Virus record (IMG/VR): IMGVR_UViG_3300027997_000002
Source of the DNA: a virus
DNA length: 64,000 nucleotides
Strand: one strand, 5' to 3'
The notes below the pieces were generated by a model, which did not search any database, had not been told where the DNA came from, and was given only the letters and a program-made list of their open reading frames with translations. Shown here one piece after another: positions 40,771-64,000 of this stretch (positions within the stretch are counted from its first letter, which is position 1; each line of letters begins with the position of its first letter). Position numbers and translations under genes: made by a program.

Positions 40771-40822
40771 TCGCATTCTTGCGCACGGGCTCGACGTGGG
40801 TCCGTGCGCATACGGAGTCTCC

Positions 40823-41704: not shown

Positions 41705-42214
41705 ATGCTGTTCGAGTTTCGCTTCCGACTAGAGGGTCACGAACAGTGGAACAAGCAATACATCGTCAATCTGTGCGATGGCCTGGTCCAGATGAACGTG
41801 GCCATGATGAACGCGGAGCCCGACCTCTATCCGCACTGCCTCGGCTGCGGCGGTATTCGTTACGTCGATGCGCCCACGTGCTTCATCAAAACGGGCGGAC
41901 GCTACAAACCGCTTCCGCAGTGTCAGCCGGTCAACGCCGCCAACATCTTGGTGAAGCTCAAAAAGGGGACCTGCCTCGATCTGTCCTGTTTTTTGTGCGC
42001 TCTCAAGCGTCACCGAGGCGATCCCGGTGCGCACATCCTCATCGACGACCAGTACGACTCGTACGAGCGCCCGGTCGACGGCAAGTTTCACATGACGGTG
42101 ATGGACAGCCTCGGTCTCCATCACGATGCGCAACAGCTCGCGCTCGCCGGAGGATGCGACCAGCAAGCGCACTACAACGTTCCGGATCAGCACGCCCCCA
42201 TCGGGGGCTCGTGA
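41705..42214 (+). CDS. Transglutaminase-like cysteine protease candidate
   Basis: KGTCLDLSCFLCAL (GDCDD-like Cys helix) ... FHMTV (His) ... HDA (Asp). Confidence 0.55.
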   Translation: MLFEFRFRLEGHEQWNKQYIVNLCDGLVQMNVAMMNAEPDLYPHCLGCGGIRYVDAPTCFIKTGGRYKPLPQCQPVNAANILVKLKKGTCLDLSCFLCALKRHRGDPGAHILIDDQYDSYERPVDGKFHMTVMDSLGLHHDAQQLALAGGCDQQAHYNVPDQHAPIGGS

Positions 42215-42263
42215 GGCAGTAGGTAACCCGGGGCCGGTCGGCCTCACCGAAAGGAACAGGAGA

Positions 42264-42560
42264 ATGCTCCCAGCCATCATCAAAGTCGCCGCCGTCATCG
42301 GTGGAACCGTCTTCCTCATGAAGAAGAAGCGCAAAAAGGGCGCCGTCGGCAACTGCAGCAAGTGCGGTAAGCGAAGCCGTAGTCTCCAGCGCAAGCAGGG
42401 AATGGTCGGCGCGTGCTGCTCGAGCTGTGCGCACGGCCATAGCTGCGAGTCCGAGGAGGAGGAGGGGCCCGTCGCTGGCGCCAAGCAGGGCGATTCGTAC
42501 TGGGACAAGTTCTACGGCATGGCGCGGATCGGGAGCTCGTTCCGCCGGCGGAGGTCCTAG
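42264..42560 (+). CDS. Single-pass protein with CSKC and CCSSCAHGHSC motifs
   Basis: TM + KKKRKK; RBS AGGAG. Confidence 0.65.
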   Translation: MLPAIIKVAAVIGGTVFLMKKKRKKGAVGNCSKCGKRSRSLQRKQGMVGACCSSCAHGHSCESEEEEGPVAGAKQGDSYWDKFYGMARIGSSFRRRRS

Positions 42561-43007
42561 ATGAGCGCGCCTGTTGGTAGACGCTTCCGCACTCGCGGGA
42601 GCGTGGGGGCATTGCGCTCGGTCGTCTCCTTCTACAACACGTCGCCGGGGCTGCCGGGGAAGTACCCTTCGCACTACTTCACGGAGATGACGCCGCCGCC
42701 TCAGCAGCAGGCGATCCAGTTCCTGACCAAGGAGCCGATCATGAAGATACCGGTGGAGCCGACTGTGCCGGCGACGCCGCCACACGGATGGATGCTCCAA
42801 CGTGAGCAAACGGCGACGCCCGCTAACAGGGTGCCAATCGTCTTCGAAATCGACGAGGGCCCGCGCAGCTCGCAGCACCCCAGCTCGTCGAGGACGGGGA
42901 CCGGCGGCTTCGACGTAGGCCCCACCCCATCCATGAGCCAATCCGCGACCAGACATCGTCGCAACCTGCGTCGGCTTGCCGGCGAGCCGGGCCTGGGAGG
43001 CCCTTAG
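42561..43007 (+). CDS. Pro-rich hypothetical protein
   Basis: TAG-ATG junction. Confidence 0.5.
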   Translation: MSAPVGRRFRTRGSVGALRSVVSFYNTSPGLPGKYPSHYFTEMTPPPQQQAIQFLTKEPIMKIPVEPTVPATPPHGWMLQREQTATPANRVPIVFEIDEGPRSSQHPSSSRTGTGGFDVGPTPSMSQSATRHRRNLRRLAGEPGLGGP

Positions 43008-43011
43008 ACCA

Positions 43012-43152
43012 ATGAAAGCCATCAAGATCCTCAACCGCGGCCAGCTCCGCCAAAACCAAGAGGCCGTCGGCATGTGGATTCAGCGCAATCCCTTCGCCTC
43101 CGTCGGCATCGGCATACTTGCGACGCTGTTCATCTGCAAGCTGCTCAAGTAG
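43012..43152 (+). CDS. 46-aa single-TM NP-motif protein (not in ORF track)
   Basis: MKAIKILNRGQLRQNQEAVGMWIQRNPFASVGIGILATLFICKLLK. Confidence 0.55.
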   Translation: MKAIKILNRGQLRQNQEAVGMWIQRNPFASVGIGILATLFICKLLK

Positions 43153-43160
43153 GAGTCCAG

Positions 43161-43625
43161 GTGGCCCGCATCTCCAAGACGACCTACGTGGTCGGGGCAG
43201 TCGTCCTCTATGGAGGACTCTACCTCCTGTTCCGCAAGCCCTACAAGAAGCCCGGCTTCATCGTTCAGGGCAACTGCGATCACTTCAGCATCGCGCCGAG
43301 TGCGATCGGCCTGTACTTCCAGCGTGCCCAAGCGGCATTGAAAGCAGCGTTTCCCGACCTCCAGACGACCGACCAGATCGACGATCACACAGCCGAAGAG
43401 TACGGCTCCGTAATCATGAAGGCGGTCTTTCCGATGTGTCCGTGGCCGCCGCAAAAGGCCATCACGGTCGGCGGTCTGACCTGGGAGGACTACACCTCGA
43501 CCTTGCAGGAGTGGATTGACAAGGTCGGTGGACTCGAGGCCGTGGGCCCCGAGGCCCCGAGCGTCACAGAGCTGATCGCCCAGTTCTCGGGCGAGGTCAT
43601 GGGCCAGGCTGGAGGAGGCGAGTAG
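43161..43625 (+). CDS. Single-pass virion membrane protein (WPP family)
   Basis: GTG start after GGAG; TM; QGNCDHF; FPMCPWPP. Confidence 0.65.
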   Translation: MARISKTTYVVGAVVLYGGLYLLFRKPYKKPGFIVQGNCDHFSIAPSAIGLYFQRAQAALKAAFPDLQTTDQIDDHTAEEYGSVIMKAVFPMCPWPPQKAITVGGLTWEDYTSTLQEWIDKVGGLEAVGPEAPSVTELIAQFSGEVMGQAGGGE

Positions 43626-43626
43626 C

Positions 43627-43809
43627 GTGTCGAGTCGCGCGGAGAAGAGCCTCGTGGCCCTGGTCGTCGGGATCCCGATTGCGCTCATCGTCGTAGGTGC
43701 CATCGGCGCCGCGAGCTCGAAGCGCAAGCTCAGGGTCTCCACCCTCCAAAAGGGTGAGCCGGAGCCCGATCCAGGGAAGCCTAAGATCCCGTTTCAGAGG
43801 GGGAGGTAG
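43627..43809 (+). CDS. Small single-TM protein
   Basis: LVALVVGIPIALIVVGAIGAA + KRK. Confidence 0.55.
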   Translation: MSSRAEKSLVALVVGIPIALIVVGAIGAASSKRKLRVSTLQKGEPEPDPGKPKIPFQRGR

Positions 43810-44877
43810 ATGGACCCCTTTGGCCTCGTACCGATCGGTGGATTTCTGCTCGCCGCGTGGCTCGGCCGCAAGCGTCGCAAGCGTCCGCGGGTCGTCTCCG
43901 ATCTGCCCGACGTCATCGAGGACTGTCCGCCGTTTCCGTGGCGCAGCGAGCTGGTCAACGAGGCCATCGAGGCCGCCCTCGCGGCCGAGGTTTGCGATCC
44001 CGAGGAGATGAGCGCACACGTGGCCGACTTCGTCTACCCGGTGTGGCCTGCGGGCGACGCGATCTCGTGGCCCAAGGCTGAGCCCTGGATCCTCGACGAG
44101 GGGATGCCCGACTCGGTGCTGTGCCTGTGGGAGCGTATTCGCCTGCGCGTACGGGCCAAGATCGCAACTCTCGAGGATGCGCTTTGCCCGAATCCAGGTC
44201 CGCGCGAAGGGATCGACTACGCCGAGCTCGCGGACGCGTGGGACTCCGGCGACGTCCCCCGCACAGCACGCTGGTACCAAGCGCATGCGCCCGGCGAGTC
44301 GTCGTGGACCGAGGTCGAGAGCATGGCCAATGTGGCCCGGGAGGCGCTCGCCGCCGCCCTCATCGAGGCCGGCCACGAAGCCGAGCTCGTCGACCAGGTC
44401 GACAAGAACGGGAGCCCATTTAGGGTGATCGCCATGATGAACGTCATCGAGTGCGCACCGATCAACGACGCACTCCTGGCGAGCCCCAAGTCCGAGCTCG
44501 GGACCAATCAAAACCCCGGCCTCGGCCACTGGGCGCCCCACAACCGAGGCATCTCGTTCAACCGCGTCCACGCCGACAACCGCGACCGCATGCGCAACGG
44601 GAACACGCCGCAGCGCGCGGTCACGAACGGCGGACGCGACAACGGACGCTACGCCGAGCACAACGGCCAAGGCGGCTTCCTGCCCACGATGTGGATCCCG
44701 CTGCTCGATCTCGAGCGCCTGGCAGCGTCGCCCAACGACATCGTTCCCCAGCGAAACGCATGGCCCAACGGTCTGAGCGGGAGCTGGCCACCGACCGAGT
44801 TCATCGAGCTCGGTACCCAAAATGTACCCGTCGGGTCCTGGGGCTGCGAGCCCGAGCGATCCGCACTGCCCGCGTAG
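43810..44877 (+). CDS. Single-pass virion membrane protein (extended WPP family)
   Basis: TM + RKRRKR; EDCPPFPW; YPVWP...SWP. Confidence 0.65.
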   Translation: MDPFGLVPIGGFLLAAWLGRKRRKRPRVVSDLPDVIEDCPPFPWRSELVNEAIEAALAAEVCDPEEMSAHVADFVYPVWPAGDAISWPKAEPWILDEGMPDSVLCLWERIRLRVRAKIATLEDALCPNPGPREGIDYAELADAWDSGDVPRTARWYQAHAPGESSWTEVESMANVAREALAAALIEAGHEAELVDQVDKNGSPFRVIAMMNVIECAPINDALLASPKSELGTNQNPGLGHWAPHNRGISFNRVHADNRDRMRNGNTPQRAVTNGGRDNGRYAEHNGQGGFLPTMWIPLLDLERLAASPNDIVPQRNAWPNGLSGSWPPTEFIELGTQNVPVGSWGCEPERSALPA

Positions 44878-44887
44878 GAGGAGACCA

Positions 44888-45139
44888 ATGAAACTAGGAG
44901 GAGCAACAGGCGGCTTTATGCCGCGCAGAAAGACGAAGCCCCAGCCCGGCGACGTCCCGATGACGCTCAAGCAGCTGAGCCAACTCGGCCATGTCCACGA
45001 GGGGGACTGGACTCTCAAGATGTTCCAGGGTCAATGGGTCGCGATCGGTCTCGATGGCCGAGTCGGTCTCGGAGCGACCAAAGAAGAGGCGATCGTCAAC
45101 GCAGGAGGAAAGGCAAATGGCACCGATCGGAAGACGTAA
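44888..45139 (+). CDS. Small protein with beta3-alpha module
   Basis: WTLKMFQGQWVAIG...GATKEEAI. Confidence 0.5.
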   Translation: MKLGGATGGFMPRRKTKPQPGDVPMTLKQLSQLGHVHEGDWTLKMFQGQWVAIGLDGRVGLGATKEEAIVNAGGKANGTDRKT

Positions 45140-45370
45140 CACCGCGCCTGCATCCAGGCAGAAGCCCAAGCCCAAGCCTGGACTGGTGCCGAAACCGGTA
45201 CCGTGTCCCCCCGGGTACACCAGGAAATGTACCTGTGAACGCCTCCCGAGGCTTCCCGGACCACCGGCTGGGCTCAAAACGATTCGTCAACCCAGCTAGA
45301 TGAAACCGTCAAACCAACAAAGGAGCAGGAGGAAAAGCAAATGGCACCGATCGGAAGACAACGTAACACC
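45101..45370 (+). repeat. Direct repeat of RBS + first codons (~43 bp)
   Basis: GCAGGAGGAAA(G/A)GCAAATGGCACCGATCGGAAGAC at 45101-35 and 45325-59, continuing GTAACACC. Confidence 0.85.
45117..45299 (+). CDS. Small basic Cys peptide (MAPIGR paralog 1)
   Basis: CPPGYTRKCTC. Confidence 0.55.
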   Translation: MAPIGRRNTAPASRQKPKPKPGLVPKPVPCPPGYTRKCTCERLPRLPGPPAGLKTIRQPS

Positions 45371-45544
45371 ACCACCAATCGCACTGCACCCAAGGGCCGA
45401 GTCGGCTACTACGGGCTTCGTCGGTCGCGCTTCAAGATGAAGACGAAGCGACAGACCGTCCGCAGTCCAGGGAGACTCTCTCTCGGGCAGTGCGCAGCCG
45501 GATGGTACTGGAACAAGAGTTCCGGCCGGTGCGAGAAGGCCTAG
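45341..45544 (+). CDS. Small basic Cys peptide (MAPIGR paralog 2)
   Basis: CAAGWYWNKSSGRC. Confidence 0.6.
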   Translation: MAPIGRQRNTTTNRTAPKGRVGYYGLRRSRFKMKTKRQTVRSPGRLSLGQCAAGWYWNKSSGRCEKA

Positions 45545-45750
45545 TGGTACCGCTAGGAAGAGGGCGACCAAACGGCCGCGTGGGCCAGGTGGTCCCGCGG
45601 TCGCCACCCATACTCGGTCGGCGGCGCCATGGCAGGCTCAAGTGCCCGAAGGGGTCCGTTTGGAGCCACAGGTTGAAGCAATGCGTCTACAAGTTGCGGT
45701 TGCCGCTAGGGCTGCAGGCCCAACCGAAACCGGAGCCGGGCGGTCCATAG
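45544..45750 (+). CDS. Small basic Cys peptide (MVPLGR paralog 3)
   Basis: GTG overlapping TAG; CPKGSVWSHRLKQC. Confidence 0.5.
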   Translation: MVPLGRGRPNGRVGQVVPRSPPILGRRRHGRLKCPKGSVWSHRLKQCVYKLRLPLGLQAQPKPEPGGP

Positions 45751-45759
45751 GAAACAGCC

Positions 45760-46167
45760 ATGATCACCGTCGTTCAAACAGTCGCCGGCGCCTCCCAGTT
45801 CACTGGGCTGGCAGGTGCCGGTCTCATCGACTTCGCCGAGCTCGCGCTGGCCGGGGAGGGCGAGAGCGGCATCGTCTATAACCTTGCGCTCAAGTGGACC
45901 GACGGAGGCGCGGTCGCGGGGACGACGATCAACTGCTTCTTCCAGCGTCCTGGCGGCGGCCCGACCGAGCGGCTGCAGGTGACCACGAGAGGTCCTCTCG
46001 TCGACACGGCCGGCTTCGAGCTGGCGGGCTGTCGGATCATCGTGCCAAGGGAGTTTCCTGGGCTCGGGACGATCTGGCCCCTGCAGCTCATCACGACCGG
46101 CAAGACCGTCGACGCCAGCCTCATCATTAGCTTCGGGAAGGGACGAGTCGAGACAGGACCAGGCTGA
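45760..46167 (+). CDS. Small beta-sandwich (penton/jelly-roll-like) structural protein
   Basis: 135 aa, all-beta pattern. Confidence 0.5.
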   Translation: MITVVQTVAGASQFTGLAGAGLIDFAELALAGEGESGIVYNLALKWTDGGAVAGTTINCFFQRPGGGPTERLQVTTRGPLVDTAGFELAGCRIIVPREFPGLGTIWPLQLITTGKTVDASLIISFGKGRVETGPG

Positions 46168-52733: not shown

Positions 52734-52742
52734 GAGGCTGAC

Positions 52743-53471
52743 ATGCCAAACGGTCTACACGGATTCGAAGACAAACGCATCAACGTCGCCGCATTCACCA
52801 ACTCGATGCGGAGTCTCTACGATCTCGCGCCGAGCATGACCGCGCTGCTGGCGATCCTGGGGGTCCTTGTCGAGCTGACCGGCCGAATCACCGAGCTCCG
52901 GGGACAGATTATGATCCCGGCGCTCAACGAGATGCTCAAGCGCCAATGGGACCCCAGGATGACCGCGCTGCGGGCCGATCTGAACAGCATCATGGAGGAC
53001 GTCGGGACGCATCCCGACGAGTCGGACATTCCGATCTCCGAGCTCCGCGACAACATCGCGGGTGCGCTCCTGTACGGCAAGCACAAGGCCTACTGGGAGC
53101 CGGACCCCTGGATGCGTCAGATGGCGGTCGTGACCTGGGCAGCGAGCATGTGGAACCAACTACTCGAGGTCGCGCGCTTGAACGCGCAGACCATGCGCGA
53201 GTACCCGCCGGGATATATTGTCATTGCGGAGTCCATCATCATGGCCGAAAAGCAGCTCAGCGAGTCGGCGCCTGGGGAAGACCCCACGATACGGGACAAG
53301 ATCAGCGACGGTCTCGATGACATCGCCGACGGGGCCGAGGACCTGTTCAAGGCCATCGCCGCCGCCGCCAAGAAAGTCCTCCCGTACGTCGCACTCGGGA
53401 TAGGTGTCCTGGCGGGCCTCATCATCCTGACGCGAACCAAGCGTGTCAGCATTACCACGAGGGCCAAATGA
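52743..53471 (+). CDS. Helical protein with C-terminal TM anchor
   Basis: VLPYVALGIGVLAGLIIL + RTKR. Confidence 0.65.
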   Translation: MPNGLHGFEDKRINVAAFTNSMRSLYDLAPSMTALLAILGVLVELTGRITELRGQIMIPALNEMLKRQWDPRMTALRADLNSIMEDVGTHPDESDIPISELRDNIAGALLYGKHKAYWEPDPWMRQMAVVTWAASMWNQLLEVARLNAQTMREYPPGYIVIAESIIMAEKQLSESAPGEDPTIRDKISDGLDDIADGAEDLFKAIAAAAKKVLPYVALGIGVLAGLIILTRTKRVSITTRAK

Positions 53472-54022
53472 GACGACTCCGCATCCGCAATCCCCTCAAG
53501 GCGCTTCGGCGAAATCCGGACGGTCAACTCGGCCTCCTGCTCGGCCTCGTGGCCATAGGCGCGGGCGCATACTTCGTCACGCGCAAAAAGCCCAAGAAGG
53601 CCGCGGAGGACATTCCGACGCTGACGCCGTCGCCAGGGCCGTTGCCGGAGCCCCCGGAGCCGGAGCCAGACCCGAGCGAGTTGCCAAGTCTCGAGGGTTT
53701 CGGGAAGATTCAGGTCTTCCCGGCAGGCGCGACCGACTACCCGATCCCGACGGATCCCACCGACGTCGCGGTCACCGAGGACTGCACGGTCTTGACGGTC
53801 CCGGTCGCCTGGTGGGACACGACCGCGATCGCCATCTTCAACAGCCAATGGAACGAAGGTCGTCGCGACGCGGTCGAGATCGTCGACATGATTGCCAATA
53901 CCGAGATCGGCATGTGCGTCGGGTATGACACACCCGGCGTCAATGGATTCCTCGCTGCTTTGGCCGCATGGGTCGTGCAGCGCATCGATGAGCGGGTTGT
54001 ACCCACCACGCTACAGCAGTAA
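53468..54022 (+). CDS. NP-motif single-pass virion membrane protein
   Basis: RIRNPLKALRRNPDG + TM + Pro linker + TEDCTVL. Confidence 0.7.
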   Translation: MRRLRIRNPLKALRRNPDGQLGLLLGLVAIGAGAYFVTRKKPKKAAEDIPTLTPSPGPLPEPPEPEPDPSELPSLEGFGKIQVFPAGATDYPIPTDPTDVAVTEDCTVLTVPVAWWDTTAIAIFNSQWNEGRRDAVEIVDMIANTEIGMCVGYDTPGVNGFLAALAAWVVQRIDERVVPTTLQQ

Positions 54023-54031
54023 GGAGCAGAC

Positions 54032-54820
54032 ATGAGCACCATCTCCACCATGATCCAGGGTTTGGCCCCGAAAGGACGGCGCCGTATGAACCCCACCAAG
54101 CAGCAGGCCGCGCTTCTGATCGCAGGAGGGGCCGCCATCGCGGCGTTCTTCCTGTTTGGTCGCAAGGCCAAGGCTGCAGGCGCTGCACCTCCGCTCATCG
54201 ACGACGATGAGACCGTCGACCCCGGTGAGCCCGACCCAGTCCCCAAGCCCGGGCCCAAGCCGCCGTCGATCAAGATCGACGTCGTGTGGGGGGACATCCA
54301 AGAGTCCATGAAGGGCAGCGAGGCGTCCAACGCCAGGCTGGTCTTCGCGACCCGCCCGGCGTCCCATAAGGGCCACAAGCGCAAGGATGGTCAGAACCTC
54401 AGCTCGTGGCTGACCAATGTGGCGTTTTGGATCACCTACCCGAACACGTTGGAGTGGCCGGGCGGCGGGATCCCCAACAAGCAAAACGTCCGGAACGACC
54501 AGCACGCGGACCGACAGCAGTACGCCGACGCCTGGGTCCGGGTCAACCAGGTCATCATGGGCCGGTTCGCGAAGTACCGCGACAAGATCTTCTTCAGCGT
54601 CAACCCGAACGCCCGCGTGGTCTCGATCGGGAAGAACGCCTGGACATGGATCGATACCATCCTGGTAGGGCCCAACGGCGCGACCGCCAATGCTGGCAGC
54701 GTCCTTATCGGGGCCTGGGAGAGCGAGTACCCGAACAAGGCGACTCCTGCGACCACCGCATGGTTCAAGGCCAAGAAGAAGATGATCGACCGGGCCATCG
54801 AGAAGGGATGGCCGCTCTAG
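54032..54820 (+). CDS. NP-motif single-pass virion membrane protein
   Basis: RRRMNPT + TM + Pro linker; YPNTLEWP. Confidence 0.7.
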   Translation: MSTISTMIQGLAPKGRRRMNPTKQQAALLIAGGAAIAAFFLFGRKAKAAGAAPPLIDDDETVDPGEPDPVPKPGPKPPSIKIDVVWGDIQESMKGSEASNARLVFATRPASHKGHKRKDGQNLSSWLTNVAFWITYPNTLEWPGGGIPNKQNVRNDQHADRQQYADAWVRVNQVIMGRFAKYRDKIFFSVNPNARVVSIGKNAWTWIDTILVGPNGATANAGSVLIGAWESEYPNKATPATTAWFKAKKKMIDRAIEKGWPL

Positions 54821-55147: not shown

Positions 55148-55876
55148 ATGGCCAAGATGTCGCCACCCACCACGCTCATGCTGATGACCCTCGGGGCCAT
55201 CGGGGTGGGGGCGATCTATCAGCTGACGTCCACCAAGGCTCCTCCTGGTCGAATAGTCGCGCCGCCGCGAGGCAAGCTGACCCAGCTTGAAGGCAAGAAG
55301 CTGCTGATGGACATCGTGTCGAAGACGCCGGCCGACGCGGCGTGGTTCGAGTTCCTGGTCGCGCGGGCCTATCGGGAGTCCCGATGGTTCCCGACCGCAC
55401 ACAACGACGATCCCAGGGAGGTCGCCGCGAGCTCGCGAGCCTACGAGCGCAACCTGGAGCGCTACGTGGGCTGCCCGTGGGCCCCGTCGCGCTACAAGCT
55501 CGGCAGCGGCGGTTACCTTGGGATCATCCCGCCGAACGGTCTTGCTGCGTTTTGGGGCACGAAGTACGAGTGCATGGACCCGCGCATGGTCTTCGACCCC
55601 ATTGCCAACGTCGTCATGGGCCTGTTCTACGGCAAGCGCCTGATGGGGTGGTCCAACTTCAAGAAGAAGCCCACGTTCTTGAACCTGTGGTCGGGCTGGG
55701 GCAACCCATCGCGGATGGGCGAGGCCGAGCGCCTGGCCAACGTGCGGCCCTTCTTCGCAGACGCGCTCCAAAAGTCCGCGGAAGATCCCTCGCTCATCGA
55801 CGAGATCGTTCCATCCATCCCACTCCCGTCAAACGGAGCTGTTCTCTACGACCAGTTGCAGCAGTTGGTGGCGTGA
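55148..55876 (+). CDS. Membrane-anchored lysozyme-like (SLT-type) transglycosylase
   Basis: TM; AYRESRW (catalytic Glu), GGYLGII, FDPIANVVMG. Confidence 0.65.
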   Translation: MAKMSPPTTLMLMTLGAIGVGAIYQLTSTKAPPGRIVAPPRGKLTQLEGKKLLMDIVSKTPADAAWFEFLVARAYRESRWFPTAHNDDPREVAASSRAYERNLERYVGCPWAPSRYKLGSGGYLGIIPPNGLAAFWGTKYECMDPRMVFDPIANVVMGLFYGKRLMGWSNFKKKPTFLNLWSGWGNPSRMGEAERLANVRPFFADALQKSAEDPSLIDEIVPSIPLPSNGAVLYDQLQQLVA

Positions 55877-56784
55877 AGAAGATGCTCGCAGCAGCCCTCA
55901 CCCTTTGCTCTGCCGGATGCCCCGAGGCGCCGCAGAGCCAGGAGGGAAGTGTGCCCGTCTATCAGCTCGCGCTCCAGGTCGAAAAAAGGCGCGAGCCGAA
56001 GCCCGCGCCGATCGCTACTGGTATCACCGCGGACCCAGTTGCCAGTACTGTGACCCCTGACCCTACCACGGACTGGTCGACGGCGTGCATGGACCACACG
56101 AAGTCCCGGCCACGATTCCGCCGCAAGGAGCAGCGGCGCACCAAGCAGCTCCTACGCCACTTCCAACGCACGGTCGGCGCGAGCTCGGACATGTTCAAGC
56201 TCACGGCCTTGGCGGCCATGCGTGAGACGAGCATGCAGGGCTCGCAGTCGCGCTTCGACGGCCAGGGCGTCATCCATCGGCTCAACCCGGACGTCGAAGG
56301 TGCGTATCGGGCCTGGCGACGACTGGCCAAGCGCTACGCCGACAACCCGCACTATGACGACGTCGAGCTTTGGTACGGAGGCGCTGGCGTGTTCGGCATG
56401 AACCGCGCGCTTTGGCTCTCGGTGTTCGACAAGACTGCGAATCCCGCCGTCCTTTGCGACACGGTCGTCGACCTGGTCGTGCTCTACCGCGCGGCCTACT
56501 ACAAGCTCCGCAAGCTTCGCGGTCCGATCCGATGCAAGGGCGAGATGGTACGCGTGCGACCGACTTGGCGAAACCTGCACCGGGCGCTGTTCGCCGGGAA
56601 GCTTTGCCCGGCCAACGGTCCCAACGCCGAGTACTACCAGCGGGCCTTCGGTCGACGGGCAGCCCGCGTGGGGCTCGACCCCGACGCCGAGGTCGGTTTC
56701 AAGGACATCGGAAAGTCGCCGGGGGGCATGACTCGCTACGAGTTGGTCGACCATGTCTGGGAGACCTTTGAGGAGGCCGCATGA
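55873..56784 (+). CDS. Lipoprotein with lysozyme-like domain
   Basis: Lipobox-like LCSAGC; AMRETS (Glu), GAGVFGMN. Confidence 0.55.
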   Translation: MKKMLAAALTLCSAGCPEAPQSQEGSVPVYQLALQVEKRREPKPAPIATGITADPVASTVTPDPTTDWSTACMDHTKSRPRFRRKEQRRTKQLLRHFQRTVGASSDMFKLTALAAMRETSMQGSQSRFDGQGVIHRLNPDVEGAYRAWRRLAKRYADNPHYDDVELWYGGAGVFGMNRALWLSVFDKTANPAVLCDTVVDLVVLYRAAYYKLRKLRGPIRCKGEMVRVRPTWRNLHRALFAGKLCPANGPNAEYYQRAFGRRAARVGLDPDAEVGFKDIGKSPGGMTRYELVDHVWETFEEAA

Positions 56785-57170: not shown

Positions 57171-57370
57171 AGAAGCCCCCCATCGACCCCACGATCGCGA
57201 CCCTAGTCGGCGCGCTCTTCGGCGGCCTGGGAGTGTTCGGCGTGTTCACCCAGCTTGAGCTCGACGCGGACCAGGTCGCCATGCTGACCGGCTTCGCCGG
57301 CGCTGCGCTCACGGCAATCCGGACCCTTTGGCTGCGGCGAGCCTACAAGGCGGAGGGAGATGGTGGCTGA
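57167..57370 (+). CDS. Holin candidate (two TM, 67 aa)
   Basis: Two TMs, basic C-terminus, next to hydrolases. Confidence 0.5.
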   Translation: MKKPPIDPTIATLVGALFGGLGVFGVFTQLELDADQVAMLTGFAGAALTAIRTLWLRRAYKAEGDGG

Positions 57371-57872
57371 GAATGGCGATGCAGCAGTCACCCAGGAAGT
57401 TGGGATTGACGAGTTTCGCACTGCCACCCGCGAGCTTGGCAAGGCCGGCACCGCCATGCAGACGATCGCTGATGTCATGGCGAAGGAGGCCGAGGCCAAC
57501 GGAGACCGATCGTGGCTCGCCAAGAACCCAGGGGTCTTCATCACCGTCGTCGTCACCGTTTGCAGCGTGCTCATCGTGGGGTTCCAGTACTACTTCCAAA
57601 ACGAGCTCGAGCGCGGCCAGCGGGACTTCTACGAGACCAAGACCGCCCCCAAGGTCGAGGACATCGAGACCACCATCGAGATCCGTGGCCGCGAGGCCGC
57701 CCAAGAGCACGTCGACATCAACAAGCGAATCGACGCCGTCGGCGACCTCCAGATCGAACAGGGCAAAGACCACCGCAAGATCCTCAAGGACCTCGCGGAG
57801 AAGCAACGCATCCCAGTGGCAGGTAAGACCGAGGACCTCAAGGCCGCTGAGAGCAAGGTGATGGAAAAATGA
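57360..57872 (+). CDS. Single-pass coiled-coil protein
   Basis: WLAKNPG + TM + heptads. Confidence 0.6.
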   Translation: MVAENGDAAVTQEVGIDEFRTATRELGKAGTAMQTIADVMAKEAEANGDRSWLAKNPGVFITVVVTVCSVLIVGFQYYFQNELERGQRDFYETKTAPKVEDIETTIEIRGREAAQEHVDINKRIDAVGDLQIEQGKDHRKILKDLAEKQRIPVAGKTEDLKAAESKVMEK

Positions 57873-58762
57873 CCCCGATCGGAACCCACCTACGCAAACT
57901 TCGACGAAACCCCGTCGACCCAGCCTCGCTGCTGTTCATCGGGGGCGCTGCTTTCGTCCTATGGCTCATCGGTGGCAAGAAGAAGAAGCGGCGTCCGCCT
58001 GGCGTCATCACCGGCCCATGCGTACCGCCGAACTGCAAGATCCCACCGCCCAGCACGGGGCCGAGCGATCCGTTACCGCCGGGCTCAGGCGGCGGACACC
58101 TCCCCAAGGGCGGCGGCTATCGACCCCCGCCCGGCATGAAGACCAACGAGGTCTGGGTCTCGGATGACTGCCAGGCGTTCATCTACGGCAGCGAGTGGTT
58201 CCCGGTCGCAGGTGACAAGGACGCCTACCAGTGGTTCGTGGACTTCGTCCAGCGCGGTGATCCGGACTGGGGAGACTGGTGGAGCGAGTACTTCCAAAAG
58301 CGTGCGCTGGAGGAGGGTCTCGAGGGCACCGAGTTCGTCAAGGGTCTCAAGCTGTGGACCTGGCACGTCGAACCGGGCGACGCGATCTCGGGCTTCTTCC
58401 CCGGTCGCTTCGCGAGTTGGCCATCGGAGCCCGCTCCCAATATCCCACAGACGATACCGGAGCCCACCTTCGCGTTCGCCGAGGAGGTCCTCGCCGAGCT
58501 CGCGCCGCAGTGCGCCCCGCCGAGATGGCAGGACTACGAGGACTCGGACGAGTGGATTGCGGACTACACGGCCTGGCGACGCCAGTTCCCGCGCATGGCC
58601 CTGCTCTTCGACCAGGCGATGGCCCTCGGCGCCGAGGGTCCGCTACCGGTCGGTCAAAACCTCAGCCTTGCAACCAACGAGACGTACGAAGGCGTACGCA
58701 ACATGTGGAATGCCCACATCGATCAGGTGGGCGCTACCAAGGGTCACATCGAGATCGTGTAG
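57869..58762 (+). CDS. NP-motif single-pass virion membrane protein
   Basis: RKLRRNPVD + TM + KKKKRR + Pro linker + VSDDCQAF; LAPQCAPP. Confidence 0.7.
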   Translation: MTPIGTHLRKLRRNPVDPASLLFIGGAAFVLWLIGGKKKKRRPPGVITGPCVPPNCKIPPPSTGPSDPLPPGSGGGHLPKGGGYRPPPGMKTNEVWVSDDCQAFIYGSEWFPVAGDKDAYQWFVDFVQRGDPDWGDWWSEYFQKRALEEGLEGTEFVKGLKLWTWHVEPGDAISGFFPGRFASWPSEPAPNIPQTIPEPTFAFAEEVLAELAPQCAPPRWQDYEDSDEWIADYTAWRRQFPRMALLFDQAMALGAEGPLPVGQNLSLATNETYEGVRNMWNAHIDQVGATKGHIEIV

Positions 58763-58774
58763 GAGACCAACGAC

Positions 58775-59158
58775 ATGAAAGCCATCAATCTTCGTCGCCT
58801 CAACAAGAACCCCGACGGTCGCCTCTACGCGCTCGCGCTCCTGGCCGCTGCCGGTGCCGGGGTCTACTACTTCACCCGCAAGAAGAAGGTGACACCACCA
58901 GGGGTCCCGGCCGACGAAAAGCTCCCAGACAAGGGGCCCCAAACGGGCGAAAGGGTCACGGTCGACAGCGCCGGAGTGGGCGAGTTCTGCAACTGGGTCC
59001 TCTACCAGCAGGGCAACATGTTCGGCTTCGATGCCATCACCACCGCCGGCGAGGTCCCCGAGCCCTTCAACTCGGGGCCGATCTATCCGTCCGAGCAGGT
59101 GGCACGCGAGGCCGTCGCCAAGCACGTCGCCGACTGGACGGCGGATGGGAAGTGCTGA
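58775..59158 (+). CDS. NP-motif single-pass protein with beta3-alpha module
   Basis: RRLNKNPDG + TM + RKKK; YPSEQVAREAVAKHV. Confidence 0.7.
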   Translation: MKAINLRRLNKNPDGRLYALALLAAAGAGVYYFTRKKKVTPPGVPADEKLPDKGPQTGERVTVDSAGVGEFCNWVLYQQGNMFGFDAITTAGEVPEPFNSGPIYPSEQVAREAVAKHVADWTADGKC

Positions 59159-59162
59159 TCGA

Positions 59163-59549
59163 GTGAACCGACTGCGCCAGCTCGTCTCTGCCGCGTTCCT
59201 GACGTTCACCGTCGGTTTCTTCATCTGTGGTTGCAAGCCCACGGTCCCAGGTGCGCTCGACGGCGCCAACAAGGCCCTCGTCGGGGTCGACATCGCGCTC
59301 GAAGAGGCAGCGAAGGCGTGGGCCGCTGCCGTCGACGCGAAGATCGCCCTGTGTCGGGCCAAGAACCTGCCGACACCGAAGGCTCGGGAGGACTGCCTGG
59401 GCATCTTCGCCCGCGGCAAGGAGGTCGAGCCCCAACTCGAGCTCGCGTCCAAGTCGTACGACCAGATCGTCGAGGGCCTGCGCCAGCTCGCGGAGGCCTA
59501 CGGTGCGCTGCGGCCTTACATCGAGGCTGCGAAGGAGGCCAAGCAGTGA
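59163..59549 (+). CDS. Helical lipoprotein (spanin-like?)
   Basis: Signal ending FICGC; amphipathic helices. Confidence 0.55.
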   Translation: MNRLRQLVSAAFLTFTVGFFICGCKPTVPGALDGANKALVGVDIALEEAAKAWAAAVDAKIALCRAKNLPTPKAREDCLGIFARGKEVEPQLELASKSYDQIVEGLRQLAEAYGALRPYIEAAKEAKQ

Positions 59550-59752
59550 GCACATTCATGCAGGTGTGGAAGAACCGGGGCGTGCTGCTTGAGCTGCTCG
59601 ACATCCTCAAGAAGCTCGCCGCGGGCGCGAAGACCATCGCCGAGATGCGTAATCGCATCGCCCAGGGCGCCCACCGAGGGGACCTCGACGACGTGCTAAA
59701 ACGGTTTGCCAGCGCCAACGAAAGGGCGCGAGACTTCGTCAACAACGGCTGA
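59546..59752 (+). CDS. Small helical protein
   Basis: GTGA overlap, RBS AAGGAGG. Confidence 0.55.
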   Translation: MSTFMQVWKNRGVLLELLDILKKLAAGAKTIAEMRNRIAQGAHRGDLDDVLKRFASANERARDFVNNG

Positions 59753-59764
59753 AAGGAAAAAGCA

Positions 59765-59983
59765 ATGAACCTCCCTTGCGCCTGTAAACAAGGACACCCC
59801 GGTCACAACCCGCAGCACCAGCAGCCCCAGGGCCGCGTCGGGCGCCACAGGGCCGGCCCGAAGAACGCGGGTCCCCCCGGCGTTGTGCCCAGGTGCCCGG
59901 TCGGCCAGACCCGCGGCGCCGACGGTCGGTGCCGTCCAGCGCCATCAATGGCGAACCCTGGCACCCCCCGTTCGAGGTACTAG
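59765..59983 (+). CDS. Small basic Cys peptide
   Basis: CAC; CPVGQTRGADGRC; MANPG. Confidence 0.5.
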   Translation: MNLPCACKQGHPGHNPQHQQPQGRVGRHRAGPKNAGPPGVVPRCPVGQTRGADGRCRPAPSMANPGTPRSRY

Positions 59984-59986
59984 ACC

Positions 59987-60394
59987 ATGGCCAAAGAAAG
60001 CCGCCTCAGGTGGATCGCTGAGATCGCAGCCGCCAGCGTGATCGGTGCGCTGGCGGTCCGGGCCATGGACAAGTACTTCTCCAAGAAGACCGAGCAACAG
60101 GCGCTGCCCGCCGAGCCTCAGCAAAACCCAGCGATGGTCGCCGGTCAGCAGCCAACGCAGCAGTTCCTGGTCGCGCCGCCGGTTCCACCGCCGGTGCCCA
60201 TGCCGGTACCGTTCCCGGTCTACACCCAGGCTCCGCAAATGATGCAACCTCAGCAACCAAACTTCCCGCAAGTTCCCCAGTTCCCGCGGCTCAACCCGGA
60301 GGAGGAGGAGCCCGAGCTCGAAGAGGTCGTCGAGGAGATCGACCCCGTCGACGAGATCGAGCGGGAGTGGGAGGAGAATGGCTGGGACGCATAA
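59987..60394 (+). CDS. TM + Pro/Gln-rich + acidic tail protein
   Basis: Low-complexity PQ tract, EEEE tail. Confidence 0.6.
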   Translation: MAKESRLRWIAEIAAASVIGALAVRAMDKYFSKKTEQQALPAEPQQNPAMVAGQQPTQQFLVAPPVPPPVPMPVPFPVYTQAPQMMQPQQPNFPQVPQFPRLNPEEEEPELEEVVEEIDPVDEIEREWEENGWDA

Positions 60395-61091
60395 CCCCAC
60401 CGGCTACGTCGCCTCCACGCGCGAGATGGACCTCGACGACGCGCCGCGCTACCTGAACGACGCGGGCAAGCTCGTATGGCTCAACGCCTACGAGTCCGCC
60501 GAGCGGGCCTACGGCGATCTGCGGTGGGCGAAGCCGCACGACGTGGCCGACTACGTGGCCTCGGGGTGGCGCAACATGCCCGCGGCTGGGAAGGGCAAGG
60601 TCGAGCTCCCGTGGCAAGGGGCGACCACCTACCTCGGGACCATGCTCGAGGTCCACTATGCGCTCACCGAGGGCCAGGTGTTCGTGCAGAGCTTCGGCCG
60701 TAGCCCGCCGGCGCTTTTGTGGAGCGCATCGCAAAAGGAGGACCGCGCGGGCGGCTCGGTCTACGCCTACCCGGGCCTCAAGATCCCGACGCCGAGCCTC
60801 AACGCCTACGAGGCCCCAAAGGCGGCGCGGGTCTACACCCAGTGGCGCGACGGCAACGAGCGACCCCGAGGAGCGAGTGAGGTCGACTTCCCGGTGCCGA
60901 ACGTGAGCGCGGCCAAGCCCGCCATTGCGGTCGTGTACCGATCCGACAAGTTCTCGCCCGGCAAGAAGATCGACTACATCCACCACTTCGACAAGGGCGT
61001 GCGCGTACGACTGGGTCCGGGCAAGATTCCGAACGCTGTGTACATCACGGGCGGTCGGCTGCGGCTGACCGAGAGGGGACTCGAGCGCTGA
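60378..61091 (+). CDS. Putative virion core protein
   Basis: THNP start; C-terminal VVYRSDKF...YIHHF...ITGGRLRLTERG. Confidence 0.65.
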   Translation: MAGTHNPTGYVASTREMDLDDAPRYLNDAGKLVWLNAYESAERAYGDLRWAKPHDVADYVASGWRNMPAAGKGKVELPWQGATTYLGTMLEVHYALTEGQVFVQSFGRSPPALLWSASQKEDRAGGSVYAYPGLKIPTPSLNAYEAPKAARVYTQWRDGNERPRGASEVDFPVPNVSAAKPAIAVVYRSDKFSPGKKIDYIHHFDKGVRVRLGPGKIPNAVYITGGRLRLTERGLER

Positions 61092-61783
61092 TGGCCAAGA
61101 AAACAACACTCTCAGCTGCCCAGCGAGCCGCCCTGGCGAAGGGCCGTGCCAAGCTGGCCAAGAGAGGCAAGAAGAAAGCGTCCAAGGAAGGGCCACGGAC
61201 GGCCCTGAAGGACGTCCGATACCGCGGCTACACCATTTTCCCTATCGTCGGCACGACCAGCCCGGGACGTCGCTTCTACGAGGCTGACATTACCAAAGGC
61301 AACACGAGCGTGGACTTCGTGACCGGCTCAACTCGGGCGATCGTGCTTCGCCGAGCTCGTCGCACGATCGACAAATACTTCATCAAAGGCGTTCCTCATC
61401 GGAAGGTCAAGCGAGGGAAGAAAAAGGTCGTCAAAGTCTCCTACGCAACGCGAGCTCGGCTTCTCAAGGCGCGCGGGGGCAAGAAGAACCGCCGTGCCAG
61501 GACGGCCCACCTGGGTGCGGCGGTCGCAACGGCAGTGGCGAACCCGAGCACTCCACGGCGCGCCAAGAAGAAGGGCAAGAAGAACCGATCGGCTCGTCTG
61601 GGCGCAGCAGCCAAGCCGTCGCGCGCGAGACGGCAGCGACCCGGGGAAGGGTTCGCTTACCTGGTCCAGGTCCAGGACTCCAACTCGAAGAAGAGGACCC
61701 GTAAAAATCCCGAGGTCGATACCGGCACCGCAAGCCCAGCTCGCGCGAAGCAGATCGCGGCGGCGTTCCTCAGGAGCGTATGA
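61091..61783 (+). CDS. Highly basic DNA-condensing/core protein with NP motifs
   Basis: LSAAQRAALAKGRAK, K/R-rich, VANP and RKNP, ends IAAAFLRSV. Confidence 0.7.
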   Translation: MAKKTTLSAAQRAALAKGRAKLAKRGKKKASKEGPRTALKDVRYRGYTIFPIVGTTSPGRRFYEADITKGNTSVDFVTGSTRAIVLRRARRTIDKYFIKGVPHRKVKRGKKKVVKVSYATRARLLKARGGKKNRRARTAHLGAAVATAVANPSTPRRAKKKGKKNRSARLGAAAKPSRARRQRPGEGFAYLVQVQDSNSKKRTRKNPEVDTGTASPARAKQIAAAFLRSV

Positions 61784-62485
61784 ATGCCCCAGAAGAAGAA
61801 GAAGCGCCATAGCTATTCGGCCGAGATCTTCTACAGGCGAAAGCGCAGCAAGCCGGGAAAGTTCATCGCGAAGATGTCCCGCGACGCACGCGAGGCCGGG
61901 AAACCGTTCCGAGCGCCGCATCAAACGGTTTCGCGCAGGGGGATGTACGGTCCGCCATTCCACGGTGAGGTTGGGAAGGCGGACGGTGGCATCTTACTCC
62001 TCGACGACCTTCAGGACTGGTCACCCGTAGTCCTCAGGGGCATCCGCGAGTTCATCGAGGACAACGGCCTGACTGTGCGGATTGTTGCGATCGTCGACCT
62101 GGATGCCACCGATGAGATGACCGGCAAGACTAGGACGAACACCCAAGAGAGGCTCAAGAAGATCGAGAAGATCTTCTGGCCCTCATTGGGGCCACCGGAG
62201 GAGGAGAAGACCGCCGCCCCCAAGAAGAAGAAGGTCCCGGTGCTCCCCTGGCCCCGCCGCAGCACGGTCGACATCGAGCGACTCCCGGGCCGCAAGTTCG
62301 GCTCCTGCCTGCGATGTGCAATCTGCATCGCCTACGATGTCAATCGAGGCTGCTGCACCGTATGCGGTCGACCGCTCTCGGCCAACGCCAAGAAGAAGTC
62401 CAAGAACCCGGCCAAGCATAACCCCAAGCACAAGCTCGCGCGCCAGCGCCGTATTGCAAGCTCGTTCCTGCGCAGCATTCGATGA
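61784..62485 (+). CDS. Basic protein containing a ComM/YifB-like AAA+ fragment, Cys cluster and NP motifs
   Basis: PFRAPHQTVS...GEVGKADGGILLLDDL...LRGIREFIEDNG; no Walker A; ends IASSFLRSIR. Confidence 0.7.
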   Translation: MPQKKKKRHSYSAEIFYRRKRSKPGKFIAKMSRDAREAGKPFRAPHQTVSRRGMYGPPFHGEVGKADGGILLLDDLQDWSPVVLRGIREFIEDNGLTVRIVAIVDLDATDEMTGKTRTNTQERLKKIEKIFWPSLGPPEEEKTAAPKKKKVPVLPWPRRSTVDIERLPGRKFGSCLRCAICIAYDVNRGCCTVCGRPLSANAKKKSKNPAKHNPKHKLARQRRIASSFLRSIR

Positions 62486-64000
62486 AGTACCGGTACAAGG
62501 GCTACGAGATCGAGATCCTGCGTCGTGAGACCGGGAGCCACGAGTACGTCCTGAGCAAGAAGGGGCGTCGACTCGAGCGCGCGCACGCGTCAGCCTTCCC
62601 GGGCTACACGGCCGAGCAGGCCCTGGCCGCGGCGAAGCGGCGCGTCGACAAGAAGACGGCCAAGAAGAAGAAGCCCGCGACCCAAAGGCGGCTGCCGAAG
62701 ATGGAGGTCTTCGACGTCGAGGCGGTCGAGCTCGCCATCAAGAAGCTCCCGCTTCGAATGCGGGTGAAGATCTTCCCGGCCGCGCGCAAGCTCGCGGACC
62801 GGCTCGAGCAGCCGCCAGTCATCGTGCGCCGCGAGATGGAGAAGCTCGACCTGGTCGAGCCCATGGGCCAGGGCTTTTGGGGCCTGAGCAAGCTCGGGAC
62901 CCGCTACTACGTCATACACCGCCAAAGGCTGGAGGAGGCCCTGGCCAAGGACCTCGGCTTCGAGCTGGAGAAGAAGCAGAGGCCCAACAAGAAGAAGAAC
63001 CCGATCCGCAAGAAGGGCGTGTTCCCGAAGTACCTCCTTCAGGCCGGCTACGACACGGTGTGGAACTACCGCGGGTGGACCATCGGGATCACCCAGCGCA
63101 GCAACACCGAGTGGGCGTGGAAGGGCAGACACCCAACCCTCAAGGTTGGGCCTATCATGGCCCGTGGGCAGCGCATCATCATGGACAAGCACGCCTACCT
63201 GGGCGAGCTCACGGGTCCGACGGGTGAGACCGAGCAAGACGCGCTTTGGATCGCCAAGTACTGGGTCGACAAGTACGAGTTGTTCTGGGCCATGTGGCAC
63301 AAAAACCGCGACGACGCCGAGAAGCTCATGACGGCGATCGGTATGCTTGAAAACACCGCCGATAAGCTAGTCCTCCGGAAAAAGCTATCGCGAGCCAATC
63401 TTGCGCGAGAGTGGCAGAGGCTCAACCCCAAACAGTCTGGCCTGTCTTCAAAGGGGGCGATCGCTTGGCAGTACTTCGAGACGCTGCCGAGCAAGGAGCG
63501 TCTGGGGATCATGGATGAGGTCAACGAATACACGAAGCGCGCGAGCTGGTGGGAGATCCTGCCCACCGCGGAGCAACGACGTCGTGGGGGCGGGCAGGCC
63601 AACCCCAAGGGCAAGAGACGCCCAAACACGATGCTCACCAAGGAGAAGGCGAAGTATCTGATGCGGTCAGGTGGCCGGCGCGTGTGGCAGTACGGCAAAG
63701 ACTGGGAGTTTCACACGTTCAAGGATTCACCCGTCGAATGGGAGGCGGAGGTCGTCGGTAGCGATCCCCGCAAACCGGGACTCGGACACACGGCCGGCAA
63801 GACCGAGCAGGATGCGCTAGCGACGGCCAAGTACCGAGTCGATCAGGAAGCCTTCCTCCACAAGATCAAGCCTGCGACGAGACGGATGCGGTTACGCGAG
63901 ATCATCATCATCCTCGAGCAGCTGGCCAATGATCGCGCCAGCGCGGACGAGACGCCTCGACGTTCCGATGTAGCACGCGAGCTCCAGACCAGAATGACAG
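62482..64000 (+). CDS. Modular basic protein >506 aa with three beta3-alpha repeats and NP linkers (runs off the window, not in ORF track)
   Basis: Hand translation from ATG 62482 is open to the end; TAEQALAAAKRRVD, TEQDALWIAKYWVD, TEQDALATAKYRVD; KKNP, RLNP, QANP. Confidence 0.8.
   Translation, partial: MKYRYKGYEIEILRRETGSHEYVLSKKGRRLERAHASAFPGYTAEQALAAAKRRVDKKTAKKKKPATQRRLPKMEVFDVEAVELAIKKLPLRMRVKIFPAARKLADRLEQPPVIVRREMEKLDLVEPMGQGFWGLSKLGTRYYVIHRQRLEEALAKDLGFELEKKQRPNKKKNPIRKKGVFPKYLLQAGYDTVWNYRGWTIGITQRSNTEWAWKGRHPTLKVGPIMARGQRIIMDKHAYLGELTGPTGETEQDALWIAKYWVDKYELFWAMWHKNRDDAEKLMTAIGMLENTADKLVLRKKLSRANLAREWQRLNPKQSGLSSKGAIAWQYFETLPSKERLGIMDEVNEYTKRASWWEILPTAEQRRRGGGQANPKGKRRPNTMLTKEKAKYLMRSGGRRVWQYGKDWEFHTFKDSPVEWEAEVVGSDPRKPGLGHTAGKTEQDALATAKYRVDQEAFLHKIKPATRRMRLREIIIILEQLANDRASADETPRRSDVARELQTRMT

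Follow-up and report, generated by a model that had tools for sequence, protein, structure and literature searches.

Asn-Pro motifs in the late proteins of a marine-sediment virus-like element are concentrated in two cassettes and may serve as structural boundaries rather than cleavage sites

What does a two-residue motif do when it recurs across the late proteins of a virus in which few genes are recognizable? The question is raised by IMG/VR virus record IMGVR_UViG_3300027997_000002, of which we analyzed a stretch of 64,000 nucleotides (here called the window). An initial annotation had noted that Asn-Pro (NP), mostly placed after Lys/Arg runs, recurs in the late proteins, and had proposed that it is a virion sorting or maturation-cleavage signal defining a packaged-cargo proteome, with a candidate cysteine protease encoded beside the capsid genes. 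Our analysis leads us, tentatively and at a little under an even chance, to a different reading of these sequences, in which NP marks structural boundaries without being cleaved, as an Asx-Pro turn or as the start or stop of a helix.

NP was counted in a set of 111 open reading frames (ORFs) selected by G+C content at third codon positions (GC3), and the expected numbers here and below were obtained from within-protein shuffles. Late ORFs (39.3-64 kb of the window) contained 33 NP dipeptides against 16.9 +/- 3.9 expected (p<0.0005), an approximately 2-fold excess, and 17 matches to [KR]x0-2NP against 5.2 expected. For the early ORFs, the corresponding values were 14 against 17.8 and 3 against 5.6. 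Only KK exceeded NP in dipeptide overrepresentation in the late set. Every site listed in the initial annotation was present, including those in the genes starting at 53468, 54032, 57360, 57869, 58775, 60378, 61091, 61784, 62482, and 59765 and the one listed under 43012, and the comparison of late with early ORFs that it had called for came out in its favor. The motif is nonrandom and late specific, and it is conserved in relatives. The DNA word AAYCC occurred 33 times in the coding frame, versus 4 and 7 times in the other frames and 9, 6, and 4 times antisense, and the NP codons were mixed among sites. The signal therefore lies at the protein level, and a DNA-level motif was rejected because AAYCC is enriched in the coding frame only.

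Partitioning of the late proteins revealed where the excess resides. Three very basic proteins that share a C-terminal tail contained 7 NP against 1.3 expected. Proteins with an N-terminal membrane anchor contained 8 against 3.6 over their whole length but only 1 against 2.8 once the anchor region was removed, and the remaining 30 late proteins contained 18 against 12.2 (p=0.056). Within the window, the NP excess is thus confined to two cassettes, the N-terminal anchor and the [KR]NP linkers of very basic proteins. The idea that NP marks the whole structural or packaged proteome does not agree with this distribution.

The anchor cassette is laid out as a basic leader, NP, a Gly-rich transmembrane helix, three to six Lys/Arg residues, and a Pro-rich linker. 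Five window proteins have this leader-type anchor (53468, 54032, 57869, 58775, and the small 42976 protein; genes are named by their first coordinate). These and the other membrane proteins considered here are as follows.

14425..14670, plus strand: protein with two transmembrane helices and RKNP between them
42976..43152, plus strand: small membrane protein with QRNP directly before its transmembrane helix (NP at 43087-43092; this is the site first listed under 43012)
43810..44877, plus strand: anchor protein starting M-D-P, transmembrane helix, RKRRKR
53468..54022, plus strand: anchor cassette with basic leader, NP at 53489-53494 (IRNP) and 53513-53518 (RRNP), Gly-rich transmembrane helix, RKKPKK, Pro-rich linker, and globular domain
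54032..54820, plus strand: anchor cassette with RRRMNP (NP at 54089-54094), transmembrane helix, and RKAK
57360..57872, plus strand: membrane protein in which AKNP (57525-57530) immediately precedes an internal transmembrane helix, conserved in related contigs L001 and L002
57869..58762, plus strand: anchor cassette with RRNPVDP (57908-57913), transmembrane helix, KKKKRR, Pro-rich linker, and globular domain
58775..59158, plus strand: anchor cassette with NKNP (58808-58813), transmembrane helix, and RKKK

The orthologue of 53468..54022 is L001 1912-2505. In relatives L003 and L004 (approximately 33% identity), the leader is missing, and 10 of 14 anchors begin with M/V-N-P, a hydrophobic helix, and KKK; these starts are fixed by 4-nucleotide (nt) start/stop overlaps. 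Nor is the Asn invariant. NP is present in 21 to 24 of 64 anchors over all loci, and the others have DP, TP, EP, HP, or AP. Orthologues of 43810 start MDP in the window, MNP in L006, VNP in L003, and MTP in L004 and L008. The 57869 family has RRNP in the window versus MPEP, a transmembrane helix, and KKKK (without Asn) in the distant L004 orthologue, and an intradomain site reads WQRL-NP in the window and L002 versus WQRL-DP in L001 and L010. A more distant relative in a Desulfobacterales metagenome-assembled genome (MAG), L039, retains the order xP, transmembrane helix, KKKK without the Asn. Anchors inside one genome are near-identical paralogues (MNPL[IV][LF]LALGG...), multiplied to 6 to 10 per genome, and none matched Pfam or PHROG families.

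Cleavage at a leaderless M-N-P anchor would shed one or two residues and so would be pointless there, and the exchange of Asn for Asp, Thr, or Glu at orthologous positions is how a helix N-cap followed by Pro behaves. Judged from these sequences, cleavage at the membrane anchors is unlikely, and a structural, helix-capping reading of them is well supported. The proposal of a maturation-cleavage signal is therefore weakened at the anchors, and the caveat that had accompanied it, that NP before a transmembrane helix may be a plain helix cap, matches the substitution pattern. An Asn-Pro helix N-cap also precedes the membrane helix of the ElaB/YqjD (DUF883) tail anchors. The cassette resembles these in its order (NP, zero to six residues, Gly-rich transmembrane helix, basic cluster) and in the exchangeability of its Asn, but it is N-terminal, is followed by a passenger after the basic cluster, and exists in many paralogues per genome.

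Several known signals were compared with the motif and rejected. A sortase B-type signal (NPQTN, transmembrane helix, and basic tail) is C-terminal, whereas this cassette is N-terminal with its passenger downstream and with variable residues after NP. Twin-arginine (RRxFLK) and class III prepilin ([KR]-G/A) signals do not fit the leaders RRNPDGQ, RRNPVDP, NKNPDGR, and RRRMNPTKQQ or the leaderless relatives. Skipping of the 2A-like NPGP type was set aside because a single NPGP is present (in 43810) and the context is prokaryotic, and an N-glycosylation sequon is excluded by Pro at +1.

A block of very basic proteins was found by tracing 60378-61091 into relatives. The window features of this block, and others with NP outside the anchors, are listed below.

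20690-21634 and 21631-22101, minus strand: two genes whose products open with a short basic leader that ends in NP (MSRNPKW, RSRRNPKW)
59765-59983 and 59987-60394, plus strand: two small proteins with two NP each, in Pro/Gln-rich stretches
60378..61091, plus strand: conserved 237-amino-acid protein with N terminus MAGTHNP and motif VVYRSDKF...YIHHF (10 homologues, alignment A4)
61091..61783, plus strand: tail-bearing basic protein 1, NP at 61541-61546 and 61706-61711, tail at 61742-61780 ending IAAAFLRSV
61784..62485, plus strand: tail-bearing basic protein 2, containing a Mg-chelatase-like fragment, NP at 62405-62410 and 62420-62425, tail at 62444-62482 ending IASSFLRSIR
62482..64000 (cut by the window end), plus strand: tail-bearing basic multidomain protein 3, NP at 62998, 63424, and 63601

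A second assembly of the window's genome, L013 (2 nt mismatches over 13.6 kb), ends about 3.2 kb past the window. From it the full 62482 ORF is 571 amino acids long, reaching 64197 in window coordinates with two further NP sites, and ends IAAGFLMGVGR. The L013 contig itself ends at about 67237 in window coordinates, 47 nt past the last basic gene, in GC-rich hairpin-like sequence that may represent a genome end or a terminator. The 60378 family always precedes the basic block; neither this family nor the basic proteins had a hit in Pfam or PHROGs. Orthologues of 59765..60394 in L001, L002, and L010 hold NP at similar places, and the L010 homologues of the two minus-strand genes (7839-8582, 11744-12385, and 13086-13799) are tail-bearing members of the basic block.

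In the tail proteins of each of three clades, NP is approximately 8-fold enriched. Those of the window genome contain 18 NP against 2.3 expected ([KR]NP, 9 against 0.6), those of the L010 clade 28 against 3.6 ([KR]NP, 19 against 0.8), and those of L011 and L012 together 32 against 3.9 ([KR]NP, 20 against 1.2); from 38 to 51% of all Asn in these proteins stand directly before Pro. The clades share approximately 43 to 48% identity in the adjacent conserved gene, and NP persists among them, with spacers on either side that differ in length and sequence. Unlike the anchor sites, with their N/D/T/E exchange, the [KR]NP linker sites remain NP. Site context was scored for 87 NP sites in 22 tail proteins, most of them inside K/R-rich linkers. 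Lys or Arg occupies position -1 in 63% of sites, versus a background of 25% and values of 36 to 44% at neighboring positions. Positions +1 to +5 likewise favor basic residues (36 to 39%, versus 25%), and about one-fifth of the sites are followed by Glu (NPE...). NP closes basic runs and lies at a fixed offset ahead of a repeated beta-alpha module, and tandem sites 4 to 6 residues apart also occur (NPIRKKNPIRKK, NPKKNPRR, NPESNPK).

Gene rearrangements coincide with these linkers. In L010 and L019, the module downstream of KKKNP in 62482 stands as a gene of its own, which starts at that linker and reads KNQ or RNQ; NP thus appears dispensable when nothing precedes the module. Gene fissions or chimeras fall exactly at [KR]NP linkers at L010 12382, L019 5644, and L019 9903. 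The last of these, L019 9903-10712, combines the N-terminal part of L010 5645-6739 with the C-terminal part of 6736-7842, and [KR]NP linkers may be recombination or deletion points. In L011 5746-6126 (126 amino acids) and L012 2692-3042, the arrangement of NP, 20 Lys/Arg-rich residues, NP, and 6 to 8 acidic/Ala residues is repeated three times before the tail, so that this protamine-like protein looks, from its sequence, like a multipeptide precursor.

Every protein of the basic block ends in a tail with the consensus I-x-x-x-[FW]-[LM]-R plus zero to four residues. Variants are IAA[AGS]FLRS in the window genome, IMR[SR]FMRL in the L010 clade, and [IL][SA]AW[LM]R in L011 and L012. The 21 tails aligned from the three clades (alignment A5) are homologous, and this shared terminal peptide occurs once per polypeptide on otherwise unrelated domains. 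Six consecutive genes of the window genome encode carriers (61091, 61784, 62482-64197, and a further three reaching 67190 in window coordinates); L010 encodes at least 10. The blocks extend over L013 12105-16813 (the window genome) and, in relatives, over L010 4797-13799, L011 4397-6126, and L012 689-3042. A scan of IMG/VR with a back-translated tail pattern found nothing. The presence of one tail per polypeptide, whatever the domains, makes the tail a likelier address label than NP. We suggest that it brings the basic proteins to a common partner (the capsid interior, the membrane, or the packaging vertex). The notion of a virion sorting signal is better matched by this tail, which the initial annotation had missed, than by NP itself. 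Like encapsulin cargo-loading and microcompartment encapsulation peptides, the tail is a single C-terminal helix of about 10 residues that follows a flexible linker on unrelated cargo; it differs in its sequence and in its highly basic cargo, and the shell is here only putative.

We propose, then, that NP would delimit short cassettes which this virus lineage reuses in many late proteins. The first would be the N-terminal signal-anchor, with an optional basic leader, N/D/T-Pro, the Gly-rich helix, three to six Lys/Arg residues, a Pro-rich linker, and a variable domain. The second would consist of [KR]n-NP linkers closing basic arms, which presumably bind DNA, just upstream of folded modules or at the N terminus. 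The third, C-terminal cassette would comprise [KR]NP, a flexible spacer of 3 to 20 residues, and the amphipathic tail helix. Besides the M/V-N-P starts, from which a cut would remove one or two residues, and the exchange of Asn for other helix N-cap residues, this structural reading draws on the tandem NP sites, which resemble repeated turn motifs more than protease sites, on the loss of NP (KNQ/RNQ) where a module is its own gene, and on the occurrence of the tail once per polypeptide on unrelated domains (21 proteins, three clades). It also draws on the fact that known Asn-Pro autocleavage needs a folded context, whereas these sites lie in low-complexity basic stretches. For the basic proteins it is chosen by parsimony with the anchors, and there the evidence between a structural and a cleaved motif is mixed. 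Several observations weigh against it. The K/R peak at -1 resembles a nonprime-side protease determinant, the threefold repeat architecture of L011 and L012 looks like a multipeptide precursor, and a conserved Cys-His-Asp enzyme lies within the structural gene block. The 8-fold excess, with so large a share of Asn before Pro, exceeds what a simple cap usually shows. In the tail module, moreover, NP stays with the basic cluster ahead of it, whereas a variable spacer separates it from the tail helix, so it is not simply that helix's cap.

The main rival is maturation cleavage, in which a protease encoded by the virus would cut [KR]NP in the basic proteins (at N|P or [KR]|N), trimming leaders, separating modules, releasing protamine-like peptides of about 20 residues, and removing the tail after packaging; on this view, NP in the leaderless anchors would represent an independent, structural role of the dipeptide. 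We regard this as unlikely, though still a serious contender. Its best protease candidate is encoded by 41705-42214, which follows two capsid-candidate genes.

40045..40770, plus strand: Cys-rich beta protein of the capsid-candidate block (GSGSCRCMT..., ending CEGGCCDF)
40796..41701, plus strand: all-beta capsid candidate immediately upstream of the enzyme gene, with synteny conserved in L003, L006, and L008
41705..42214, plus strand: transglutaminase-like Cys-His-Asp enzyme of 169 amino acids (C90 at 41972-41974, H129 at 42089-42091, and D141 at 42125-42127)

The C...H...D arrangement noted at the outset is real. The enzyme has 41 homologues, small stand-alone proteins of 150 to 200 amino acids with extra conserved Cys pairs, and C90, H129, and D141 are retained in 90% or more of 39 homologue sequences. 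In an AlphaFold2 model of high confidence (predicted local distance difference test [pLDDT], 90), helix 90-103 begins with Cys90, and strand 123-133 contains His129. Matches among AlphaFold Database clusters were almost all transglutaminase-like (best E value 6e-8; TM-scores 0.64/0.73). Those in the PDB (VIA Z 7.7-5.1) were the putative protease 3kd4, PeiW/PeiP, PNGase, TgpA, and LapG, a Z range that is unremarkable by itself but with matches that agree in kind. Pfam Transglut_core matched 10 of 39 homologues weakly (best E value 1.5e-4) and did not hit the window protein; the family profile found nothing significant among PDB sequences, and an hhalign comparison with a true Transglut_core protein (L040) aligned the Cys helix alone, at 16% probability. 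The models thus support the transglutaminase/papain-like core fold that had been proposed. As in the transglutaminase-like superfamily (Pfam Transglut_core, the pseudomurein endoisopeptidases PeiW/PeiP, LapG, TgpA, and PNGase), the Cys lies at a helix N terminus and the His and Asp on later strands; the family differs in its small stand-alone form, its extra Cys pairs, and its lack of a Pfam hit or of a sequence relative with a solved structure. By this modeled likeness, the enzyme may be a protease, isopeptidase, cross-linker, or amidase.

In L003, L006, and L008, the enzyme gene likewise follows the capsid-candidate genes, so its position beside them, too, was correctly noted. Homologues of 40045 occupy the same position in L003, L006 (two in tandem, 3041-4404), and L008 (two in tandem, 7151-8705) and end CEGGCC[DS]F. 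Neither 40045 nor 40796 had a Pfam or PHROG hit. The AlphaFold2 model of 40796-41701 is weak (pLDDT, 53); viral jelly rolls are matched by its C-terminal half with Z values (6.7-7.7) that fall within noise, and its best BFVD hit was the Sulfolobus turreted icosahedral virus (STIV) coat protein (E value 3e-4, low TM-score). Its assignment as a jelly-roll capsid protein is only suggestive. ESM Atlas models for 40796, 40045, and 60378 were uninformative (pLDDT, 0.26-0.46), and IMG/VR scans with 40796 and with 57869 found nothing.

Conserved Cys residues are abundant in the enzyme and in ORF 42126-42560 as well as in 40045-40770, a possible sign that the particle uses disulfide or metal chemistry. 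ORF 42126-42560 overlaps the 3' end of 41705-42214 by 89 nt and encodes a transmembrane helix followed by KKKRKK and a CxxC-rich segment. This segment is conserved as a 79-amino-acid gene in L006 (5328-5567), and the true start of the ORF is probably internal. The minus-strand ORF 41729-42508 was rejected as a shadow of 41705-42214 and 42126-42560.

Maturation cleavage gains from the threefold repeats of L011 and L012, the K/R peak at -1, the position of NP 12 to 36 residues before the C terminus in most tail proteins, the fissions and chimeras at [KR]NP linkers, and the presence of a conserved papain-like-clan enzyme in the morphogenetic block. L040, a contig of a Luteitalea MAG, adds to these points. 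There, a single stop-free frame (2363-3631) contains a true Transglut_core domain (E value 1e-11) and a C-terminal domain like that of 60378, whose family always lies ahead of the basic block. The middle of this ORF looks out of frame, and the overlapping ORF 2907-3416 reads better, so the adjacency of the two domains is certain and their fusion (or a frameshift) only possible. Against cleavage stand the leaderless MNP anchors with their N/D/T/E exchange and the close spacing of the tandem sites. Pro at P1' makes a poor substrate for most endopeptidases, and we know of no protease of this fold that uses such a site. The enzyme is also conserved beside capsid candidates on contigs that lack an NP excess in their visible genes (ratios of 0.87 in L008, 1.27 in L006, and 1.31 in L003), although these contigs are incomplete and the point is therefore weak. 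None of our results connects 41705-42214 to the NP sites; a complex prediction with residues 190-233 of the 61784 protein scored 0.03, which is evidence neither way.

Self-cleavage was considered separately and fits poorly. The Asn-Pro autocleavage of RsgI and of reovirus mu1/aquareovirus VP5 (Asn42-Pro43) requires one site within a folded turn (PMC10328401). The proteins considered here share the dipeptide with these systems, and possibly a virion or membrane context, but they have 3 to 11 sites each in basic low-complexity stretches, with Asn replaceable at several positions. No NPTH context is present among the NP sites, and the analogy with FlhB/YscU that had been drawn is not supported. 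With 87 sites in 22 proteins, mostly in linkers, and with N/D/T/E exchange at the anchors and at WQRL-N/D-P, the motif resembles neither the FlhB/YscU nor the RsgI type.

In adenovirus, adenain matures pVII, pX/mu, and pVI and is associated with the C-terminal pVIc peptide, and in T4 a capsid-targeting sequence is removed. The window system is like these in its very basic, presumably DNA-associated proteins, a putative small protamine-like precursor, a short terminal peptide shared by putative cargo, and a cysteine enzyme among structural genes; it differs in protease clan and site consensus. By this analogy, the element could be a bacterial, probably membrane-containing, tailless virus of 75 to 80 kb with an adenovirus-like core maturation. 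Here, a transglutaminase-like cysteine protease of the virion would cut 6 to 11 tail-addressed DNA-condensing proteins at [KR]NP, so that protamine-like peptides would be set free and leaders and tails lost. We consider this full scenario doubtful.

Alternatively, [KR]NP might be a recognition motif whose partner is a viral or host factor (packaging vertex, chaperone, or insertase) or DNA, the latter bound by an SPKK-like Asx-Pro turn, and so serve as an uncleaved sorting or DNA-condensing unit. Its clade-wide conservation inside basic arms, the basic residues at +1 to +5, the tandem NPxKK-like repeats, and its appearance in both anchor leaders and soluble proteins are in favor of this. The SPKK repeats of histones H1/H2B, which bind the DNA minor groove through beta turns, likewise place a polar residue and Pro within Lys/Arg runs, sometimes in tandem. 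Here, however, the basic preference is strongest before the motif, and the Glu after about one-fifth of the sites marks the end of a basic run with no continuation; leaderless anchors have NP only, the rest of the motif being absent. We judge recognition improbable. That NP has no function of its own, and recurs through common descent, recombinational spread of a few paralogous cassettes, and K/R/P-rich composition, is very improbable and already disfavored: the anchor paralogues are near identical within a genome, the tails are clearly homologous, and one chimera is joined at a linker, but the shuffles control for composition (18 versus 2.3, 28 versus 3.6, and 32 versus 3.9), NP is kept in three clades despite varying spacers, and the codons vary.

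The window (64% G+C) comes from a contig of 75.6 kb, and one related contig (SDBS01000059.1) is 80.3 kb. Relatives were found solely in metagenomes, several of them assemblies of Loki's Castle deep-sea sediment (accession prefixes SDBS to SDBV). Few window genes are recognizable: a RepB-like primase, a UvrD helicase, a methyltransferase, a GT2 glycosyltransferase, an FkbM methyltransferase, and the following ATPase.

1685-3406: FtsK/HerA-type ATPase, whose best PHROG is annotated as terminase large subunit (E value 3e-17)

No tailed-phage hallmarks were present among 20 window proteins scanned against PHROGs. A tyrosine recombinase (Pfam Phage_integrase) and an AAA ATPase (L019 1-1155 and L022 36-1124) are divergent from the adjoining tail and basic-protein block, and this placement of an integrase suggests that L010-type relatives may be temperate or integrative. 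The window is best described as a virus-like, possibly temperate element, and the group as large virus-like elements of marine sediments, previously undescribed; no description of it was found in the literature searched. L039 (54.8 kb, 54% G+C) has a 60378-like domain and five of the anchors described above, and neither an NP excess nor a tail block was seen within 15 kb. Its binning with a Desulfobacterales MAG is a possible host lead, although viral contigs are often misbinned. Two conserved late proteins of the window, 55148-55876 and 55873-56784, have motifs that recall lytic transglycosylases (..YRESRW.. and ..MRETSMQG..) and had no match in Pfam or PHROG.

The kinds of element considered here (helix caps, turn motifs, targeting peptides, and maturation sites) are already known. 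The tail, the [KR]NP punctuation, and the small transglutaminase-like family had no match in Pfam, PHROGs, or PDB sequences beyond the weak Transglut_core hits noted above, and the enzyme family is new and fixed in the morphogenetic module of viruses with hardly any Pfam or PHROG matches. The conservative reading, too, defines three reusable cassettes (anchor, linker, and tail), and the anchor might find use as a minimal N-out membrane anchor. Should the tail and the [KR]NP linkers be functional signals, they would allow the cargo and core proteins of an uncultured virus group to be listed from sequence, and they pose the question of whether there are prokaryotic viruses with histone- or protamine-like cores that are matured as in adenovirus.

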